A DNA stretch of 11,257 bases from a virus. Lineage: Duplodnaviria > Heunggongvirae > Uroviricota > Caudoviricetes. The translations under genes were made by a program, and so were the position numbers. The number at the start of each line of letters is the position of its first letter. The stretch's first letter is position 1. The stretch lies in the IMG/VR virus record IMGVR_UViG_2734482772_000014. One strand, given 5' to 3'. The notes below the pieces were generated by a model. The model worked only from the letters and a program-made list of their open reading frames with translations. It made no database searches and was not told the DNA's origin. Positions 1-11,257 of the stretch are shown here, in pieces.

Positions 1-282
1 CTACCTTTGCCTATTGCCGCCATTTAACCGGAAGGCGTTACCGTTCGGTTGCGCTATCCCCATGCGGTGTTGCGTTTCGGTAACAGCTTTATGCAGGTCG
101 CCAAAGTCCTCAACCTTCACGGGCGGGCGCTTCACGTTCTCAAGACACGTTTCACGGCGGCGCTTTATCCATTCCCGATCATCGGCCTCGGTGCATAACA
201 GCATGACTTCCATCCATCGCGCTGCGGCGCGTCGGTACATCCCTTTTGCTTCCAGATCCTCGGCTTTACTGTCGTTTACCAT
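1..282 (-). CDS. PerC-family-like small transcriptional regulator (93 aa)
   Basis: Complete ORF: ATG at 282..280, stop TAG at 3..1. SD GGGGGAG 6 nt upstream of ATG. N-terminus MVNDSKAEDLEAKGMYRRAAARWMEV...REWIKRRRETCL matches my recollection of the PerC/Pch family pattern (A..LE.KG..RRAA.RW..V). Family call is from memory, not a search. Confidence 0.5.
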   Translation of the reverse strand: MVNDSKAEDLEAKGMYRRAAARWMEVMLLCTEADDREWIKRRRETCLENVKRPPVKVEDFGDLHKAVTETQHRMGIAQPNGNAFRLNGGNRQR

Positions 283-336
283 GTTTATCTCCCCCAGAAT
301 GGCGTTTCATCGTCGAATGGTGGGCGTTGGTCAAAA
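263..336. repeat. Copy A of a ~75-90 bp duplicated 5' leader (SD + first 8 codons MVNDSKAE + upstream CCATTC direct repeats)
   Basis: Near-identical by eye (a handful of mismatches) to 1205-1296; contains start of the PerC-like gene. Confidence 0.8.
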
Positions 337-495
337 TCATCAGGGGTATTATATGACTCCCATCCCGGCGCGGATTGTGTTGCGTGGCCTCCTGTGTGCC
401 TGTAGCCTGGCTGATTCCGGTAATACTGCGGAGTTAGGTCTACCGGCATAGCTTACCCGTGGAGAAATGAATCATCGAATTAGTTTGGTCGGGAG

Positions 496-1167
496 TTATT
501 CCACCAGCAAAAATGGCGTTGCCCGGTCTATGACGTTGATGCCAATTAACGAGCTAACATTTCGACCATCCACAATGCTATCCCGTTCAAGCAAATGCGC
601 TATTTTTTCTACTTCATACCAGTATTGAGCCATGAGGGCTTTGGTCTTTTCAACGAGTTTAGAAAGCATTAACTCCCTGTTAATTAGCTTATCTGTAGCG
701 CAGATTAAATCGAGCATGTCATTTACGTTAGCCATGTCATAGCGATGAGGTAGCGAATACTTTTTGTTGAAAATATCGTTGTTTTCGTAAAGGGCTTCGC
801 TTACTGGTCCGGCGAGGGATACAAAAGCGGCCTTTTTTGCATCGCGCTTTATGCCATCCGCATAGTAACGTATGAAAGGGATAACTTTACCATTCTGCCC
901 AACTACACCAGATTTACTATCCCGCAAACGCCCGAGATCGTGGCTGTGAATTATGCTGTGTTTAACAACGCCCAAACACTTGGCCTCATGTACATGTTTG
1001 CCAGCAACGTAACCGTATTCATCCATAACGGCGATAACCTGTACATCTAAGCGAATAAGCCATGCAGCTACTGCATGTCCCGCTTCGTGGAATGCTACAC
1101 ATCGTTTACCATCACCTATCCAGTTATAGAACATTTCCGGTTTATATATCTGGTGAATGGCTACCAT
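496..1167 (-). CDS. Standalone zinc metallopeptidase-domain protein, FtsH/M41-like (223 aa), no AAA+ module
   Basis: HExxH motif as FHEAGHAV (FtsH has HEAGHA). Downstream SLAGPVSEAL and DMANVND resemble FtsH GGRLAEEI and ASNDI segments. SD GAGGG 6 nt upstream of ATG 1167..1165, stop TAA 498..496. Visibly lower GC than flanks (not computed). Confidence 0.55.
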   Translation of the reverse strand: MVAIHQIYKPEMFYNWIGDGKRCVAFHEAGHAVAAWLIRLDVQVIAVMDEYGYVAGKHVHEAKCLGVVKHSIIHSHDLGRLRDSKSGVVGQNGKVIPFIRYYADGIKRDAKKAAFVSLAGPVSEALYENNDIFNKKYSLPHRYDMANVNDMLDLICATDKLINRELMLSKLVEKTKALMAQYWYEVEKIAHLLERDSIVDGRNVSSLIGINVIDRATPFLLVE

Positions 1168-1223
1168 TACGCGCCCTCGCTTGCTAGTGAGGCCAGAGCC
1201 TCTGCTTTACTATCGTTGACCAT
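1167..1223 (-). CDS. 18-codon upstream ORF (MVNDSKAEALASLASEGA), stop TAA overlapping ATG of the M41-like gene (TAATG)
   Basis: ATG at 1223..1221 preceded by SD GAGGGAG; first 8 codons identical to the PerC-like N-terminus. Could be a coupling leader peptide or a recombination remnant. Confidence 0.3.
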   Translation of the reverse strand: MVNDSKAEALASLASEGA

Positions 1224-1296
1224 GTTTATCTCCCTCAGAATGGTGTTTCATCGTCGAATGGTGGGCGTTGGTCGTATTCATCACGGGATGGCTGCT
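1205..1296. repeat. Copy B of the duplicated 5' leader, upstream of the M41-like gene
   Basis: Same sequence as 263-336 with a few substitutions; the duplicated start codon opens an 18-codon ORF. Confidence 0.8.
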
Positions 1297-1669
1297 GCGC
1301 ACGTCTCAGCGCGTCCGTTGCCTGTCCCCGCTGTCCTGCCTTCCCGCCGGGGCGTACCGTTCTGGCGCTGATCACACTGTCGGCTACTACCTGATACCCC
1401 TGCTGTGTACCTCCGTCCTGCCCTGTCCACTGATTGATCTGCATCGCTCCGGCAACACTGACTAAATCGCCTTTAACGTGTCCTGCCAGTGCGTCGGCCT
1501 GTTTGCCGAATGCCACCACGCCCAGCCAGAAAGTAACCTCTCCGCCCTCTGCTGTATGGCAGGGCAGTGCCACCGCTAACCGTCCCATTGCCATGCTTGT
1601 ACCGTTTGCTGTGGTACGGGTCTGGGGATCTGCCACCAGCCGCCCGTATGCTGAAATTTGTGCTGTCAT
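1235..1669 (-). CDS. ssb: Single-stranded DNA-binding protein (SSB family, 144 aa)
   Basis: OB-fold pattern aligns by eye with E. coli SSB (G.L..DP..R...NG...A; W..VV.FGK.A....L.KG; W.D..G), Gly/Gln-rich linker, and acidic C-terminal tail FDDETPF (SSB: FDDDIPF). Confidence 0.75.
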   Translation of the reverse strand: MTAQISAYGRLVADPQTRTTANGTSMAMGRLAVALPCHTAEGGEVTFWLGVVAFGKQADALAGHVKGDLVSVAGAMQINQWTGQDGGTQQGYQVVADSVISARTVRPGGKAGQRGQATDALRRAQQPSRDEYDQRPPFDDETPF

Positions 1670-1968
1670 AGATATTTCCTCATGTAGTCACTACCTCCGG
1701 GGATAATTTTCATTTCTTCCCTTAAAGGCCACTGCTCCGCCATTGCTGCGGTCGAGTGATTCCCGTCATCACGTCCGGCCTGTGCTGCCGTCCAGTGTGT
1801 TGCATATTCTGTAAATCCAATTTCTGCTGGCTGCCTCATCCAGTGGGCGATCATCCTCAAGGTCATTTGCAGGCTTTGGGTGTCGCCCTGTAATGCGCGT
1901 TTGTCAGTAAACCCCTTCAATGCTTCACGCTCCTGATAGGTCATTTTCTGGCTGGTTTCTGTATTCAT
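1666..1968 (-). CDS. Hypothetical protein (100 aa), translationally coupled to ssb
   Basis: SD AAGGTGG upstream of ATG 1968..1966; stop overlaps the ssb start (ATGA at 1669..1666). No recognised motif. Confidence 0.5.
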   Translation of the reverse strand: MNTETSQKMTYQEREALKGFTDKRALQGDTQSLQMTLRMIAHWMRQPAEIGFTEYATHWTAAQAGRDDGNHSTAAMAEQWPLREEMKIIPGGSDYMRKYL

Positions 1969-1990
1969 TGCCCACCTTCGTTATAAGCTA

Positions 1991-2016
1991 CCCCCCCCAT
2001 AGAATTTTTTTGGGGG
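1991..2016. repeat. C8 / G5 homopolymer hairpin (CCCCCCCC-13 nt loop-GGGGG)
   Basis: Directly visible; lies between the iteron array and the SD of the 100-aa gene. No U-tract after the stem on either strand. Confidence 0.5.
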
Positions 2017-2022
2017 TGTAAT

Positions 2023-2270
2023 ATCCCTACCAATCCCTACTAACTGGCTCAGGCCACGAATGGCAAGGCTTTCAGACTGGTAGGCATTCAATTTTGTTGC
2101 CCTACATAACCCTACTTATCCCTACTAAATCACTTCAACGGCATTTTGCTGCCTGTTTTATTTGGTAGGGATATGTAGGGATAAGTAGGGATAAAAATAT
2201 ATATCCCTACCTAGTTTAAAGCCTTGCTACGTCTGGCCTCGTCTCGTTTTTAGTAGGGCAGTAGGGATAA
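2023..2270. repeat. Iteron array, putative replication origin (crr/ori-like)
   Basis: About 11 copies of core CCCTAC/GTAGGG, often as (T)TATCCCTAC or GTAGGGATA(A/T). Forward copies at 2025, 2035, 2100, 2110, 2120, 2205; reverse copies at 2165, 2175, 2185 (exact 10-bp period), 2254, 2261. AT-rich tract ATAAAAATATATAT at 2191-2204. Sits immediately 3' of the primase-helicase gene. Confidence 0.6.
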
Positions 2271-2287
2271 GTGCCGCCGTAAAAGTT

Positions 2288-4729
2288 TCAATCATCACTC
2301 TGCCCGCTCTCCACACCGTAAGCACGGGGCATGAACTCCTCAGCCTTCTCGTTATAGCCAACGTTGGTTTGCGCTCTGCCGTTAATGCTTCTCGTCAGGT
2401 AGCTGGCTCGGTACTCTTTTGCTGCTGATTTTATGGCGCGTGAAAACTTATTGACGGAAAGCGGTTTACCCAAACCGTGATACTCCATAAACGCCAGATA
2501 AAGATGATAAAGATACGTCCTCGGCTCTGGCTGGCCTGCCCATGTACCTCCGCCCATCATCATGCCTTTGGGTTCGTTCATGAAAAAAAGCGCCGCACAC
2601 ATATCGACAACCGGATCCGTGCCGCGTTTAACCTCTAGCGCCTCCTGCGAATCGCGCTGCTCTAGTAATAGTTCCTTTGCTTTGTTCTGGTCGGAAAAGG
2701 TGGTTAGCAGGTGGCGGATAATCACCGGGATTTCTCGCCTGATTTTTGCTGTTAAATCCGGGTCTTTGTCTGCGTCTGATACCGGGTTATTAAACGGGAA
2801 TATCACGCGGCGGCGGGCAATGCCCCCGTTTCGCTCCGTGAATGTCATCGGCTCGTTATTGGTTGCCATAACAACGGCATTTATCACGGTTGTGAACTGC
2901 TTTTCATATTTCCCATCAATCTCTACCGGATCGCCGCCCGTAATGGCTTTAATCCCCGCACCCTCTCCAACATAGCGGGTCTGGTCAGGCATAATAATCA
3001 GGCTTTTTCCTACGAACTGCGCCCGTCCCCGTGCGGTGTCCAGCGTCATCATGCTACCGCTGGCGGTGTTGTGTTCACCTGCCAGCGTGGTTGCTATGCT
3101 GCTGAATACGGATTTTCCACTGCCGCCCTCGCCAGTTATCTCAATGAATAGCTGCCAGTCGTGACGCTTCGCCAGCACCATAAACAAGGCTGCTTTGATA
3201 CGCTCGGCCTTATGATGGTCGCCAGCCGTTGCATGATTCAGCCAACTGGTAAAATTGGGGGCGCTGGTGGTAATATTTTCCCCCGGCGCTGGCGGGGTGT
3301 AGGTGATCCCATTGTGGTTCATCAGCCAGTTACCCGGCGAATGGGCGGAAAACGTCTGCGTAGCGAGGTCATAAACGCCGTTATCAAAACCAATCAAATC
3401 CCCGCTCCGCTCACCAATTACCGGTATTTGCAGCTTCATGGTTGCGACAACCGATTTAATCCCCTTTTCGGTGTAGTGGGCTTCGTGCTCGTCGAAAATT
3501 GCCACCATAACCCTTTCTAATTCACTGTCTGGTAGCTTCTCCCATACGCCAGATTCGTAGCAGTAAACAGTGCCACTATCAGGGTTAACCGCCAACATAT
3601 CCCATCGAGATGAAAGCAACCGCGCTTTCTGGCTGGCTGCCATTTGTGCAATATCTCCGACTTCGGCTTTACGGCGGGATTTACCGCCCGCAATGGCCTG
3701 TAGTTGTGGTTTCACGGCTTCCCCCTGAATCTGGTACATCGAATCGTTAAACGCAGCCGTAGCGACTTCCAGCCCGTTTTGCTGGCGGTAGTCGTCCCAG
3801 TCGGCTTTGTAGTCTGTCGGCGGCAGCGCCACCCAGCCAGCCACGGATAAGGCGGCTTTCTCTGCGGCATCTTTGCCCGTGTTCGCCTGTTCGTCCTGTT
3901 GGTGGTCGTTATCTGCGGCAATGATAATTTGCGACTGCGGGTGTTTCCGGCGCATCACTTCGGCAACGGGTAGCAGGTTGCCCGCATCAATGGCGCACAC
4001 TGTCAGCGCGTCAGGGCGCATCAGGTGGACTGATAAAGTGGTTGCCAGCCCCTCGGCAATAATCACCGCCTGCGGCTGTTCCGGTGCGTTAACGGCGTGA
4101 TATGCCCCGCGCTTTGCTGAACCTGTCAGGAGTCGCTTCTCTCCCTGCGGTGTAATGGTTTGCGCTGCTGCCACTGCGCCGGATTCGTCCACCAGCTCCA
4201 GCAATAACGAACCATCCGGCATAACCGGATAGTTAAACCCGGTCAGCCCTTTTGATTGCAGGTAATCAGATTCTCCCTGTGTGGCACTCTGGCGCATTCC
4301 GGCATACAGACGGGCAAACGTAGCCCTTCGCTGCTCTGCATCCTCTGCTGCCTGTTTCTGGCGCTCCTGCTCACGCTGCTGGCGGTCAGCTTCCAGTTGC
4401 TCTCTTCTATGGCTCGCTGCCACCGGGTCGGTTTCCGCTGCCCGGTAATCAATACCCAGCACATCAGCGGCAAGCCTTGCCGCTTCTGTGGTGTCGCAGT
4501 TGTTCACCTTCTTAATCAGGTCTAAACCGTCACCAGCGCCACACTGATTGCAGATAAAGCTACCGCGCCCGTTGTCGTCGAATCTGAAACGGTCTTTTCC
4601 ACCACATGCAGGGCATGGAGAATGGCGGCGCGATGAATCAGGCACGTCGATAGACAATCCAGCCAGCACATAAGGCCAGCGCCCGGCGGCGGCACTGGTC
4701 ACTTCGCGGATAATGTCGATATTACGCAT
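2288..4729 (-). CDS. P4 alpha-like bifunctional primase-helicase (813 aa from ATG 4729)
   Basis: Zinc ribbon CPACGG...CNQCG; Toprim signatures (IIAEG..., IIIAADND); Walker A GEGGSGKS in the C-terminal helicase region. SD AGGGGG upstream of ATG 4729..4727, placed just after the stop of the 113-aa gene (4724..4722). Confidence 0.88.
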   Translation of the reverse strand: MRNIDIIREVTSAAAGRWPYVLAGLSIDVPDSSRRHSPCPACGGKDRFRFDDNGRGSFICNQCGAGDGLDLIKKVNNCDTTEAARLAADVLGIDYRAAETDPVAASHRREQLEADRQQREQERQKQAAEDAEQRRATFARLYAGMRQSATQGESDYLQSKGLTGFNYPVMPDGSLLLELVDESGAVAAAQTITPQGEKRLLTGSAKRGAYHAVNAPEQPQAVIIAEGLATTLSVHLMRPDALTVCAIDAGNLLPVAEVMRRKHPQSQIIIAADNDHQQDEQANTGKDAAEKAALSVAGWVALPPTDYKADWDDYRQQNGLEVATAAFNDSMYQIQGEAVKPQLQAIAGGKSRRKAEVGDIAQMAASQKARLLSSRWDMLAVNPDSGTVYCYESGVWEKLPDSELERVMVAIFDEHEAHYTEKGIKSVVATMKLQIPVIGERSGDLIGFDNGVYDLATQTFSAHSPGNWLMNHNGITYTPPAPGENITTSAPNFTSWLNHATAGDHHKAERIKAALFMVLAKRHDWQLFIEITGEGGSGKSVFSSIATTLAGEHNTASGSMMTLDTARGRAQFVGKSLIIMPDQTRYVGEGAGIKAITGGDPVEIDGKYEKQFTTVINAVVMATNNEPMTFTERNGGIARRRVIFPFNNPVSDADKDPDLTAKIRREIPVIIRHLLTTFSDQNKAKELLLEQRDSQEALEVKRGTDPVVDMCAALFFMNEPKGMMMGGGTWAGQPEPRTYLYHLYLAFMEYHGLGKPLSVNKFSRAIKSAAKEYRASYLTRSINGRAQTNVGYNEKAEEFMPRAYGVESGQSDD

Positions 4730-5063
4730 GGTTGCCCCCTGCCACGGTCGCGCCCATGTCTTTAACCATGCTTTGCCATATCTCACGCCCTACGTCAGTC
4801 AATCCGTCATTAGTGACGCAACGATCAAGAATCTCGATCCCCACGGTTTCCCACTGCGGGTAGGACACTTTCATGGCTGCCAGTGTGTAGCTATCGATCA
4901 GGCTGCGAACGCCTTTTACTCCATTGACGATTTCCACACGGATTTGCTGGCCTGCCGCGTCAACCATGAAGTAATTGCCACCATTGATAGCCGTAATGTG
5001 GTTATACAGTGCCGACGCATACTTATTCGCCAGCGCATTAAGTCGGAAATTTTTAGTAATCAT
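4722..5063 (-). CDS. Hypothetical protein (113 aa)
   Basis: SD GAGGGGG upstream of ATG 5063..5061; ends 4 nt before the primase SD/ATG. No recognised motif. Confidence 0.5.
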   Translation of the reverse strand: MITKNFRLNALANKYASALYNHITAINGGNYFMVDAAGQQIRVEIVNGVKGVRSLIDSYTLAAMKVSYPQWETVGIEILDRCVTNDGLTDVGREIWQSMVKDMGATVAGGNHA

Positions 5064-8127: not shown

Positions 8128-8559
8128 TTATGCGGCGGTAAATGCGTCTGGGTAGAGGTTGAGAATGTCGGCTATTTCAGACTTACTAAGCCCCTGATAA
8201 CCCCCTGCGGCGGCGTTGCTGTTAACCAACTGGATAACTCGCATCACATCACCACGGCCCACAAATCTGTAGCGTAGGTGTGCGCCAATGCCATCGGGGT
8301 TCTTTTCGTCTATACGCTCAAGCTGAATATCAAGCCTGCGCTCTAACTCGCTGGCGTAGTTCCTTCCAGACGAAAGGCGGCAATAACGCAGAATATCGTT
8401 TTCTGTCCATCCCTCTATACCAGTACGCAGCATATAGACGCGGGCGCGGTGTTTCTTTGGGGTACGCCTAGGTACTTGTACCGGGCTGGTGGTCGGCGTA
8501 ATATCAGACGTGCGAATATCTGAGTTAGCCGCCTGTAATGGGCGGTTTTTCTTTTTCAT
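8128..8559 (-). CDS. Hypothetical basic protein (143 aa from ATG 8559), coupled to alpA
   Basis: ATG 8559..8557 overlaps the alpA stop (ATGA). Lys/Arg-rich N-terminus suggests nucleic-acid binding. Family not recognised. Confidence 0.5.
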   Translation of the reverse strand: MKKKNRPLQAANSDIRTSDITPTTSPVQVPRRTPKKHRARVYMLRTGIEGWTENDILRYCRLSSGRNYASELERRLDIQLERIDEKNPDGIGAHLRYRFVGRGDVMRVIQLVNSNAAAGGYQGLSKSEIADILNLYPDAFTAA

Positions 8560-8762
8560 CAAGCCACCTTTCCCCGACGTTCTGCCAGCCAGTTGTTAAT
8601 CTCTACCGCATCAAAGGCGGTAATCTTCTCGCCCAGCTTTACCGGACGTGGTAGTGAACCGTTTCTTACTTTACGGTCGATGGTGGATACACTAACGCCC
8701 AGTAATTCAGCCAGGCGGAAGCGTCTGATATAGCCTTTTGTAGGAATAGTGTCGGTGTTCAT
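8559..8762 (-). CDS. alpA: AlpA/Vis-family phage transcriptional regulator / excisionase-like (67 aa)
   Basis: Winged-HTH signature RLAELLGVSVSTIDRKVRNGSLPRPVKLGEKITAFDAVEINNWL typical of the AlpA family; position next to a P4-type integrase. Confidence 0.8.
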   Translation of the reverse strand: MNTDTIPTKGYIRRFRLAELLGVSVSTIDRKVRNGSLPRPVKLGEKITAFDAVEINNWLAERRGKVA

Positions 8763-8876: not shown

Positions 8877-9842
8877 CTACCCCTTACCGTTGGCGGCAGC
8901 ACGTAAGTGTCTCAAAATCACATCTTCATTTGTGATTGCTAACGGTGGAATTTCGTCTTTATGAGCCACTATGCAATCCCGCCACTTCTCAGGGCTTATT
9001 TCTTTCTTTTTGCCACGGCATTCATCAGGATACTTTGACAAAAGATATATTGCAGATTTGAAAAGTTTTTCCCTGTTTTCAGCATGTCTCTCGGCATTAT
9101 GGTTGCTATTTTTTATTTCAGGTATTAGTTCCTGTTCTACCGCCATTTCGTATCGTTTTTTGCTCTTAGCTGCGTCAAAACTTCCATTAACCTTTGCGTC
9201 ATGAAGGTATTCTAAATCAGCCTTTGTTATATAAATGTTTTTATCTGACAGGCTACTCAGGTGAATTTGGGAACTTTGCATTTTGAATTTATATAGATCA
9301 CAATCAAATGTTGCTTCAAGTCGCACATATGGTTCTCCACATTCTTGTGAATGATAATGTCGTGTTGTTCTACCGCGTACACGCAACAATCCACATGCAA
9401 TTGATTTTCTTACAATAAAAGAGTTTTTGCCAATTTGTTCAAAAACATTTTTATTGTCGCTGTCTTCAACTGTCAGTGGTTTATGTGCATAAAATAGCTC
9501 ATAAGCACCGCTTTCAGATGCTGGGATATAAACTTCGTTGCTTGCGCTGGTAATAAGAAAAGGAAATGTAAACCTTACTTCTTCTGGGTACATAAGTAAT
9601 AAATCAGTTATAAAATTAGCATCTTTTTTGAAGTGGATGGTGGCATCAGATTCAATGAAATCAAGAAAGTCAGCATAGACATAAAAGTCTATATGTAGTC
9701 TATCTTTCCAATGCCATATATCATCAATTTCACAATTTAATAATTTTGATGCTCGCTCTATCGTGCAGTAGTCCAAAGGTGGAATACCTGATTCCTGCCA
9801 TAAATTTCTATGCACCACAGTTGTTTCATGAGAGTCGTTCAT
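8877..9842 (-). CDS. Orphan hypothetical protein (321 aa), AT-rich cargo between integrase and alpA
   Basis: SD AAGGTGA 7 nt upstream of ATG 9842..9840, stop TAG 8879..8877. Markedly AT-rich versus neighbours (by eye). No Walker A, HExxH or obvious hydrophobic TM stretch; C-terminal third is Lys/Glu-rich. Confidence 0.65.
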   Translation of the reverse strand: MNDSHETTVVHRNLWQESGIPPLDYCTIERASKLLNCEIDDIWHWKDRLHIDFYVYADFLDFIESDATIHFKKDANFITDLLLMYPEEVRFTFPFLITSASNEVYIPASESGAYELFYAHKPLTVEDSDNKNVFEQIGKNSFIVRKSIACGLLRVRGRTTRHYHSQECGEPYVRLEATFDCDLYKFKMQSSQIHLSSLSDKNIYITKADLEYLHDAKVNGSFDAAKSKKRYEMAVEQELIPEIKNSNHNAERHAENREKLFKSAIYLLSKYPDECRGKKKEISPEKWRDCIVAHKDEIPPLAITNEDVILRHLRAAANGKG

Positions 9843-9937: not shown

Positions 9938-11197
9938 TTAGTTCGCCCTTCTGAGAGGCGTTACGTTGTAGTCTTTTCCGCTTTCCAGTGCCACCAGCAG
10001 ATCAGCCCACTGTGCCAGTGCTGCTTTACGCTCATCAAAATACTGATGGCGGTTATAAATCCCCTCTACGCCCTTAATGCGATGATTGAGGCATCGTTCC
10101 GCCACGACAGGATCAACACCCAACGCTGCTAAATGAGTACGTGCGGTGCGTCGGAAGTCGTGAATCGTGAAATTAGGCACATCCGGCATTTCGGCGCGAA
10201 CCTTAGCCAGTGCTACGGGCAAAGTGCTTTCCTGAATATGTGGGATCATTCTGTTTTGCATCTTCCTGGCTGGAAGCACCCATGCGCTATTACATGAAAA
10301 GGTGTGTAGCTCTCTCAACCATTCAACGGCTGGGGAAGGTAGAGGTATATCAATAGGGTCTCCGTTTTTGCTGCGTTCTTCCGGCAAATGCCATACCGCA
10401 CCATCTAAATCAAACTCTTCCCATCGTGCGGCGCATAACTCCATCTTACGAACGCATAGTGCCAGCAATAGCTTAAATGTCAGTTCGTTCTGGCGGCTGA
10501 ATCCTTTTGCGGTGCGCATAGCCTCGAATAGCCTGATAAGCTCATCGCGAGTTAGCCAACGGTCGCGGGAAACCTCTTTACCACCAGCATCAGATACTTC
10601 AAACGCTGAACAAGGGTTTATCTCCAGAGCGTGGCGTTTTATCCCGTAGTCAAAGATACGGCGTGTCCAGCGTAATACATCTGTTGCTATCGTTGGTGCT
10701 CCTCGGTCAACGATACCTTTCAACATGTCGTCAATGTGGCGTGGCTTAACGTCCTCTACCTTCATATGCCCAATGCAGGGGTTAATATCCTTATCAATTC
10801 TCCGGCGAAGGATATCGGGATGTTTCCATCTCGGAAGTATCTGGCGCTCGAAGTATTCGGAGGCCAGATCTGAAACACGCATGGCGTTTTTCTCAGCCTC
10901 CATTTTTGCCAGTGCTTCAGCTTTTCGTTCCTGTTTCTCTGCTGCTACGTCATAGCCAAGAGCAACTCTGGCTGACAGCTCTTTGGCTGTCTCTCTGGCC
11001 TTTGATAGTGATAGCTCGCTATACGAACCAATTAGCATGGCGCGGGACTTCCCTGCGAGTTTATAGCGGAATCTCCATGTGGGGGTTTTGTCGGCTTCAC
11101 GGTAACGTAGGTATAAACCGTTACCGTCTGCCCGCCCCTCGAATCGCTCTCCGCTCTTAATCCATGCGCGGATCTGCATGTCTGTTAGTTTTGGCAT
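9938..11197 (-). CDS. int: P4-type tyrosine integrase (419 aa from ATG 11197)
   Basis: N-terminus MPKLTD...GLYLRY...WRFRYKLAGK...LIGSY is characteristic of P4-family integrases; C-terminal HDFRRTARTHL (HxxR) and GIYNRHQYFDERK (catalytic Tyr region). The ORF stays open to the window edge (11257), but the MPKLTD start is the conserved one. Confidence 0.88.
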   Translation of the reverse strand: MPKLTDMQIRAWIKSGERFEGRADGNGLYLRYREADKTPTWRFRYKLAGKSRAMLIGSYSELSLSKARETAKELSARVALGYDVAAEKQERKAEALAKMEAEKNAMRVSDLASEYFERQILPRWKHPDILRRRIDKDINPCIGHMKVEDVKPRHIDDMLKGIVDRGAPTIATDVLRWTRRIFDYGIKRHALEINPCSAFEVSDAGGKEVSRDRWLTRDELIRLFEAMRTAKGFSRQNELTFKLLLALCVRKMELCAARWEEFDLDGAVWHLPEERSKNGDPIDIPLPSPAVEWLRELHTFSCNSAWVLPARKMQNRMIPHIQESTLPVALAKVRAEMPDVPNFTIHDFRRTARTHLAALGVDPVVAERCLNHRIKGVEGIYNRHQYFDERKAALAQWADLLVALESGKDYNVTPLRRAN

Positions 11198-11227
11198 TTT
11201 GCGAATATCCAAACTTTGAATAGGGGG

Positions 11228-11251
11228 TGTACCCAAAGCAATGTACCCAAA
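11228..11251. repeat. Direct repeats TGTACCCAAA x2 upstream of int
   Basis: Copies at 11228-11237 and 11242-11251 (14-bp period), within 50 bp of the int start. Candidate Int arm-type sites or int promoter operator. Confidence 0.4.
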
Positions 11252-11257
11252 CCTCAT

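Follow-up and report, generated by a model that had tools for sequence, protein, structure and literature searches.

Near one end of an 11,257-nt viral DNA record (IMG/VR IMGVR_UViG_2734482772_000014; "the window" below means this whole stretch), nearly the same sequence stands in front of two unrelated genes, one for a PerC-family regulator and one for an FtsH-type peptidase domain. This raises the question of whether the shared sequence is a control element placed before two genes, a site at which cassettes are exchanged, or the residue of a recombination event. The initial annotation described it as about 90 bp of promoter-proximal leader plus the first eight codons, and offered two explanations: the footprint of cassette insertion by homologous or site-specific recombination at a conserved leader, or a common regulatory module. 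Our analysis indicates that the two copies are, very probably, allelic versions of a single junction between an ssb gene, a Shine-Dalgarno (SD) site and perC, which would have been brought together by unequal crossover between diverged relatives within an EcCIMP1-like family of phage-inducible chromosomal islands (PICIs).

Judging by its genes, the host element is an EcCIMP1-like PICI, of which 11.3 kb is visible. All genes in the window lie on the minus strand. An Arm-type (Arm-binding, phage-type) tyrosine integrase occupies the far end of the island (9938-11257), followed by an AlpA-type HTH gene (8559-8762), genes for an AntA antirepressor and an Ash-family protein, a P4-family primase gene (2288-4786) and TCCCTAC iterons at about 2020-2240. 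After the iterons come orf100, ssb, an M41-like peptidase gene and perC, in this order. Structural and lysis genes are absent from the visible stretch.

One gene junction present twice

A repeat search of the window returned a single long direct-repeat family, two ungapped 95-nt copies at 252-346 (copy A) and 1193-1287 (copy B) that are identical at 85 of 95 positions (89%) and spaced 941 nt apart. Counting all pairs of offsets in the window, a binomial calculation puts the number of such matches expected by chance at about 1e-29, so the near-identical duplication first seen by eye is real. Its limits had been placed slightly off, at 263-336 and 1205-1296; the homology breaks off at 1287/1288, not at 1296.

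Read on the minus strand, each copy is made up of the last 17 codons of ssb, an 11-nt spacer that holds the SD (GGGAGA) between the ssb stop and the perC ATG, and perC codons 1-10. This make-up follows from the identity of the ORF upstream of copy B, ssbS (1235-1669), an intact gene for a 144-aa single-stranded DNA-binding protein ending ...DEYDQRPPFDDETPF*. The Pfam SSB family (PF00436) matches residues 4-99 with E 4.3e-15 and 56.1 bits against a 26-bit cut-off, phrog_44 matches with E 5.5e-33, and the TIGR00621 match (E 7.5e-14) reaches 52.4 bits, slightly below its cut-off of 53.95 bits. The C-terminus, ...QRPPFDDETPF*, is an SSB-type acidic tail with Pro-Phe directly before the stop. In bacterial SSB proteins the OB-fold is followed by a linker rich in Gly, Gln and Pro and by an acidic tail with Pro-Phe at its end, and the same plan is seen here (PPFDDETPF*), although the tail sequence differs from that of the host SSB, the acidic tip of the E. 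coli protein being ...DFDDDIPF. The repeat is one gene junction (ssb end, ribosome site, perC start) present twice.

The minus-strand content of the repeat had been described correctly: both copies encode MVNDSKAE, with codon 9 differing (D versus A), and both carry an SD and two CCATTC motifs. What does not hold is its reading as a leader, since about 55 of the 95 nt, those 5' of the SD site, are the 3' coding end of ssb. The CCATTC motifs, taken for direct repeats of that leader, both lie inside coding sequence as the Pro-Phe codons of PPF...TPF in the SSB acidic tail, and are conserved because they encode the Pro-Phe of the SSB tip. The ten differences between the copies comprise four synonymous third-position changes, E>D, Y>F (2 nt), R>P, A>D and TGA>TGG. 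The substitutions appear to track codon positions, which looks like coding-type divergence.

The copies differ in what surrounds them. In copy B, the final 17 codons of the short ssb and its TGA are followed by the 11-nt SD spacer and perC-derived MVNDSKAEAL. Copy A consists of the last 17 codons of a long ssb, the SD spacer and intact perC codons 1-10; the QRPPFDDETPF tail is again in frame before it, and because the stop codon is mutated to Trp (TGA>TGG), WGR is appended after the terminal Phe, as it is in some intact long ssb alleles (L006 and L013 in our numbering of related loci). As originally described, copy A continues into the PerC-like ORF (perC, 1-282), whose 93-aa product matches PF06069 with E 1.8e-28 and 99.1 bits against a 22.6-bit cut-off. 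Also as described, copy B stops after 18 codons and hands over to the M41-like gene: the 18-codon ORF (1167-1223) contains perC codons 1-10 and orf57 codons 49-57 before its stop, and its TAA overlaps the ATG of M41a (TAATG). M41a (496-1167) is a cargo gene for a stand-alone FtsH-type (HEAGH) peptidase domain of 223 aa, named "peptidase M41 family protein" by NCBI, with a partial match to Pfam M41 (E 3e-4) and a match over residues 20-210 to the AFG3L2 protease domain (6nyy, E 1e-4).

Allelic origin of the copies and the joints of the peptidase cassette

Positions 1-2300 of the window are matched in 398 of 5,426 complete E. coli genomes, and the related islands provide single-copy junctions with which each copy can be compared. 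Copy A is identical at 95/95 positions to the junctions of L002, L006 and L013. Copy B is identical at 92/95 positions to the junction of an Enterobacter asburiae island (L010), with which it has 9 of 10 diagnostic sites in common, and at 91/95 to that of L001. The flanks follow different lineages: the ssbS body upstream of copy B shares 99.5% identity with L001, and the part of perC past copy A shares 99.6% with L002. Since each copy is closer to the junctions of other islands than to its partner (85/95), the divergence of A and B predates their juxtaposition. On these comparisons, copy B can be identified as the junction of an intact short ssb allele and copy A as that of a long ssb allele in which the peptidase cassette has taken the place of the gene body. 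What is left of the latter is a remnant, 'ssbL (294-394), comprising the last ~33 codons of a long ssb, ...GHATQSAPGWESYNTPDDFDQRPPFDDETPF, then W; strain MB46 has an intact ssb of 156 aa, and the 3' end of this gene shares 97.3% identity with window positions 283-394. Intact long ssb genes (153-156 aa) followed by perC are found in L006, L008 and L013.

Both cassette joints were resolved to the nucleotide. At joint 1 (1193-1201, minus strand), copy B is fused after perC codon 10 to the last 9 codons of orf57, a small gene whose normal place is directly before the M41-like peptidase gene, as seen in L002 and L003. In these two islands the 57-codon ORF has the ending ...DKALASLASEGA*, with a TAA that overlaps the M41a ATG just as in the window. 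In the window, perC-derived ...AGTAAAGCAGAGGCTCTGG passes directly into ...CCTCACTAGCAAGCGAGGGCGCGTAATGG (orf57 codons 49-57), and thus the 18-codon ORF is a perC'-'orf57 chimera that keeps the native TAATG. The perC allele of the E. asburiae island starts MVNDSKAEAL (GAGGCTCTGG), and this places the joint on the L010-type perC sequence AGGCTCTGG against orf57 AGGCGCTGG, a microhomology of 8/9 nt (AGGC[T/G]CTGG).

Joint 2 (381-389, minus strand) lies inside the ssb linker, not at the repeat, and is a microhomology of the same length and quality (GGCCAC[G/A]CA, 8/9 nt) between orf94 (GGCCACGCA) and the long ssb allele (GGCCACACA). Between M41a and this joint lie two further pieces on the same strand. 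The first is the M41a 3' flank (431-495), which travels with the gene and is contiguous with it, at 96% identity, in an unrelated island, L009, whose orf58-M41 module is 96% identical to window positions 431-1201. The second (381-430) is a 50-nt fragment from the 5' part of orf94, a 94-aa gene that sits at the ends of capsid-gene-bearing islands; it is 100% identical to L009 and 95% identical to L015.

One ORF, orf54 (285-449, minus strand), runs across all of these pieces: the M41a flank, the orf94 fragment out of frame, the ssbL tail in frame, and WGR. Pfam, TIGR and PHROG profile searches gave no family match for it and the orf94 piece is out of frame, so we regard orf54 as an accidental three-part chimera and not a gene. 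As a candidate SSB-tail mimic gene it was rejected on the same out-of-frame fragment and on having no homologues as a protein family. Neither orf54 nor the 18-codon ORF should be annotated as a gene.

Both parental architectures occur in living relatives, from which we infer the parental elements. The first parent would have had the order orf100-ssbS-perC, as in L001, which has a single junction and a span exactly 941 bp shorter than the window. The second would have had the order orf57-M41a-(orf94 fragment)-'ssbL remnant-perC; L002 has orf57-M41a-remnant-perC without ssb, and L003 is similar with part of orf100 kept, such that L002 equals L003 minus 326 nt. In a first step, the M41a module of an L009-like donor would have replaced the body of a long ssb by illegitimate recombination, giving rise to islands of the L003 and L002 types; this step is suggested by the right joint that these islands have in common. 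In a second step, a single unequal crossover at AGGC[T/G]CTGG, between perC codon 10 of an ssbS-perC island and orf57 codon 48 of an L003-type island, would have produced the order seen in the window: ssbS, copy B, 18-codon chimeric ORF, M41a, 'ssbL remnant, copy A, perC. The single crossover and the order of events belong to this reconstruction, and the same product could come from insertion of a fragment into the ssbS-perC junction without a reciprocal unequal crossover. It is also conceivable that the short microhomologies (8/9 nt) are coincidental. The best reading of the locus is an ordinary mosaic joint, made by recombination that was probably illegitimate and microhomology-mediated, rather than a regulatory leader.

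Several consequences are likely under such an origin. The peptidase gene would now be part of the ssb operon, co-oriented behind ssbS. The perC ribosome site would open a short ORF ending on the M41a ATG, with the native stop/start coupling kept; M41a has its own GAGGG ~8 nt upstream of its ATG, so its translation may not depend on the chimeric ORF. The flanking direct repeats would make the cassette prone to loss. Among the junctions compared, no single-copy junction is the clean hybrid, B on the left and A on the right, that is expected from a pop-out between the copies, and such a pop-out was rejected as the origin of the single-copy elements.

Derivatives and competing explanations

Both copies are also present in L018 and L020, which are 99.87% and 100% identical, respectively, to window positions 1-2300 (L020 is GCA_000797915.1). 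They are among the 10 contigs returned by an exact-protein look-up, which disproved the idea that the two-copy state is unique to the window and indicates that it is a small but real lineage. Among complete E. coli genomes the chimeric joint occurs in 5 records from 4 strains; an exact search of IMG/VR and JGI metagenomes did not find it. Copy B is identical at 95/95 positions in L018-L021. In two of these, L019 and L021, ssbS, copy B, M41a and the 'ssbL tail are followed by a different pair of genes, M41b-orf116, in place of perC, and the second copy is reduced to a 54-nt ssb tail.

Other derivatives have lost sequence. In E41 (L004), a 150-nt deletion removed copy A and perC codons 1-22; its ends are marked by 13-nt imperfect repeats on the minus strand, GGATGG[G/A]AGTCAT, at 353-365 (GGATGGGAGTCAT) and at 203-215 inside perC (GGATGGAAGTCAT). 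In strains 50EVAW and QDFD216 the matched span has the same length as in E41, 2148 bp, and the search of complete E. coli genomes shows a single place, so these strains appear to carry the E41 deletion. BLAST gave the three strains a "coverage" of 98% by using copy B twice, and we rejected the window-identical architecture that this value implied. The island of F11 breaks off inside M41a.

These relatives bear on whether the repeat works as a control element. A common cis-regulatory or translational module (a promoter, a CCATTC operator or a leader) governing perC and the peptidase gene is an appealing idea in that the perC SD and ATG are reused in copy B, where the stop of the 18-codon ORF overlaps the peptidase ATG, and in that the sequence is conserved across many islands. 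Against it stand the features already described, namely that more than half of the repeat is ssb coding end, that the motifs are a Pro-Phe codon pair, that only 11 nt between the ssb stop and the ATG are non-coding, and that substitutions follow codon positions. A promoter and terminator scan of 1-2400 found no sigma-70-like promoter in either copy and one weak promoter-like site overall, inside the peptidase gene, fewer than in shuffles. DNA folding found no stable fold in either copy on either strand (z +0.7 to +2.3 versus shuffled sequence), and an Rfam search of the repeat gave no match at E<=1. The comparison with other cargo argues in the same direction: in L007, L011 and L014 the same ssb tail is followed by M41b and orf116 (M41b is another HEAGH peptidase, only distantly related to M41a, with 29% identity and E 1e-12), and there the homology extends no further than the ssb stop codon and is followed by a different SD region, so that no portable leader module is present. 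We consider a shared control module very improbable. An in situ tandem duplication of the junction, followed by cargo insertion between the copies and divergence, would explain why two direct copies flank cargo, but the copies are identical or nearly identical to the junctions of other lineages while only 89% identical to each other, and a different ssb allele lies upstream of copy A. These comparisons contradict this origin, which we hold to be, if anything, slightly less credible still.

The proposal of a recombination footprint fares better, with one restriction. That a cassette was exchanged here is supported, as is the expected variability of cargo, since the homologous islands surveyed carry perC, M41b-orf116 or the M41a cassette after the ssb tail. 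That the exchange was site-specific is not, given joints that vary in position and consist of 8/9-nt microhomologies. The variable cargo (perC, M41b-orf116, perC'-orf57'-M41a) and the tyrosine integrase of the island might suggest that the 95-nt unit is the recombination site of a dedicated integron-like or att-like cassette system. Yet the left joint of the M41a cassette differs from island to island, L002 having it in the iteron region, L003 within orf100 and the window at perC codon 10, while the right joint of the cassette lies in the ssb linker and the joint of the L007-type architecture at the ssb stop codon, and joint positions that differ in this way between architectures exclude such a system. 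Repeat search and folding found no inverted repeat or hairpin in the 95-nt unit, and the integrase is of the ordinary Arm-binding phage type, at the far end of the island. Of all the readings weighed here we hold this one to be the least probable.

Homologous recombination at a conserved junction has some limited support, with the correction that the conserved stretch is SSB-tip coding sequence and not a leader. All four combinations of ssbS or ssbL with perC or M41b exist with identical joints (L001/L010, L006/L008/L013, L011 and L007/L014), a four-gamete pattern that implies crossover within the ~40-nt invariant tail-coding stretch, and in L019 and L021 M41b comes after the 'ssbL remnant. 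The ssb tail may therefore work in practice as a linker for homologous recombination by which downstream cargo is shuffled, with the copies persisting as handles for gain and loss. We regard this as possible though rather doubtful, given that a clean B-left/A-right junction is missing, that copy A was lost, in the one case observed, through another microhomology of 13 nt, and that ~40 nt is close to the minimum length for RecA-dependent exchange. It complements the joining of two junction alleles by unequal crossover and does not replace it. A bolder extension, in which the tail stretch, held invariant through selection on the protein, also acts as a linker for swapping the gene after ssb (perC, M41b or the M41a cassette) and the retained repeats and 18-codon ORF reflect a selected coupling of the FtsH-type peptidase to ssb, seems to us unlikely, and the suggestion that the orf54 remnant could serve as an SSB-tail decoy peptide is weaker still.

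Cargo exchange in EcCIMP1-like islands

In the modular-evolution picture of Hendrix and Botstein, illegitimate or short-homology recombination creates mosaic joints between the modules of temperate phages and of satellites. The window resembles such mosaic joints in its sharp module transitions at or near gene boundaries, in the microhomology at the joints, in the alternative cargo at the same position and in the leftover gene fragments ('ssbL, orf94) beside the joint. It differs from them in keeping both parental versions of the junction in cis, which accounts for the 95-nt repeat and the 18-codon chimeric ORF. To our knowledge, this particular joint has not been described before.

A search of M41a, orf57, M41b, orf116 and orf100 with PADLOC gave no defence-system match for the cargo, and a literature search found no M41 peptidases in satellites. 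One weak PADLOC match (E 0.002) was to an unrelated 321-aa ORF.

EcCIMP1 is a described E. coli PICI with a PerC-family gene, and such genes are reported to be common PICI cargo (PMC11773190). The window and EcCIMP1 have the integrase, AlpA-type HTH, AntA, Ash, primase, PerC-family and pRiA4b-ORF3 genes in the same order. They differ in the primase, which is of the P4 family in the window and of the TOPRIM/DUF927 type in EcCIMP1. Of the two, EcCIMP1 is the one for which helper-phage induction and packaging have been shown (PMC11773190). After the primase, the orf100-ssb-M41a module of the window contrasts with DNA-ejection-like genes in EcCIMP1 (L017), and since the two modules are entirely different, the post-primase stretch is the variable part of these islands.

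The locus reveals no new regulatory element or mechanism. It is a worked example of how a "duplicated leader" recognized by eye can turn out to be two alleles of one junction side by side, with both cassette joints defined to the nucleotide and with parental and derivative architectures found in other genomes. It documents that cargo is exchanged by short-homology recombination after the primase in EcCIMP1-like PICIs.

Variation at the ssb-perC junction

In copy A, one of the two copies of the 95-nt repeat that joins the 3′ end of ssb to the 5′ end of perC, the ssb stop codon is changed from TGA to TGG (window 294-296). The same change is found in the intact long ssb alleles of two other islands, L006 (2503-2973) and L013, while TGA is retained at this site in L003, an island that carries a remnant of the long allele. 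The substitution adds WGR past the Phe that normally ends the SSB acidic tip; a longer SSB tip would be expected to weaken partner binding.

In strain E41, a 150-nt deletion takes out copy A together with codons 1-22 of perC, and its ends are marked by imperfect 13-nt direct repeats, GGATGG[G/A]AGTCAT, at window 203-215 and 353-365. This deletion appears to be common to 50EVAW and QDFD216, since both are matched over the same 2148-bp span as E41.

A probable origin and additional reading frames

Directly downstream of the P4-family primase gene, (A/T)TCCCTAC iterons are densely packed in both direct and inverted orientations (window 2020-2240). This array contains imperfect inverted arms of 80 nt (2051-2130 and 2160-2239) and is probably the replication origin of the island.

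Opposite the perC/ssb tail, two long antisense ORFs on the plus strand, of 145 aa (window 14-451) and 98 aa (1075-1371), each include the 95-nt repeat. Both mirror the minus-strand genes, and it is very unlikely that either is a real gene. At the end of the island nearest the integrase, a 321-aa ORF (8877-9842) flanked by the integrase and AlpA genes is possibly cargo with an accessory or defence role; Pfam and PHROG searches returned no match for it, and its sole PADLOC match was weak (PDC-S31, E 0.002).

Stand-alone M41-type peptidases

The peptidases M41a (window 496-1167) and M41b (L007 1857-2501) are FtsH-type HEAGH peptidase-domain proteins that stand alone, without an AAA+ module. They are distantly related (29% identical, E 1e-12), each lies immediately 3′ of ssb in the window's PICI family, and both are present together in the islands L019 and L021. 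M41a could also be aligned with the protease domain of AFG3L2 (E 1e-4). In the unrelated island L009, ~1.2 kb without an annotated gene (~1347-2565, plus coordinates of the locus) separates M41a from orf94; this stretch begins with a lipoprotein-like signal, MNLINRIALTSLALMFTGC, and is absent from the window's family.

A PADLOC search gave no match for M41a or M41b, and a literature search found no link between M41-type peptidases and satellites. Because FtsH controls the stability of lambda CII, it is conceivable that M41a and M41b could influence the lysis-lysogeny decision of the helper phage.
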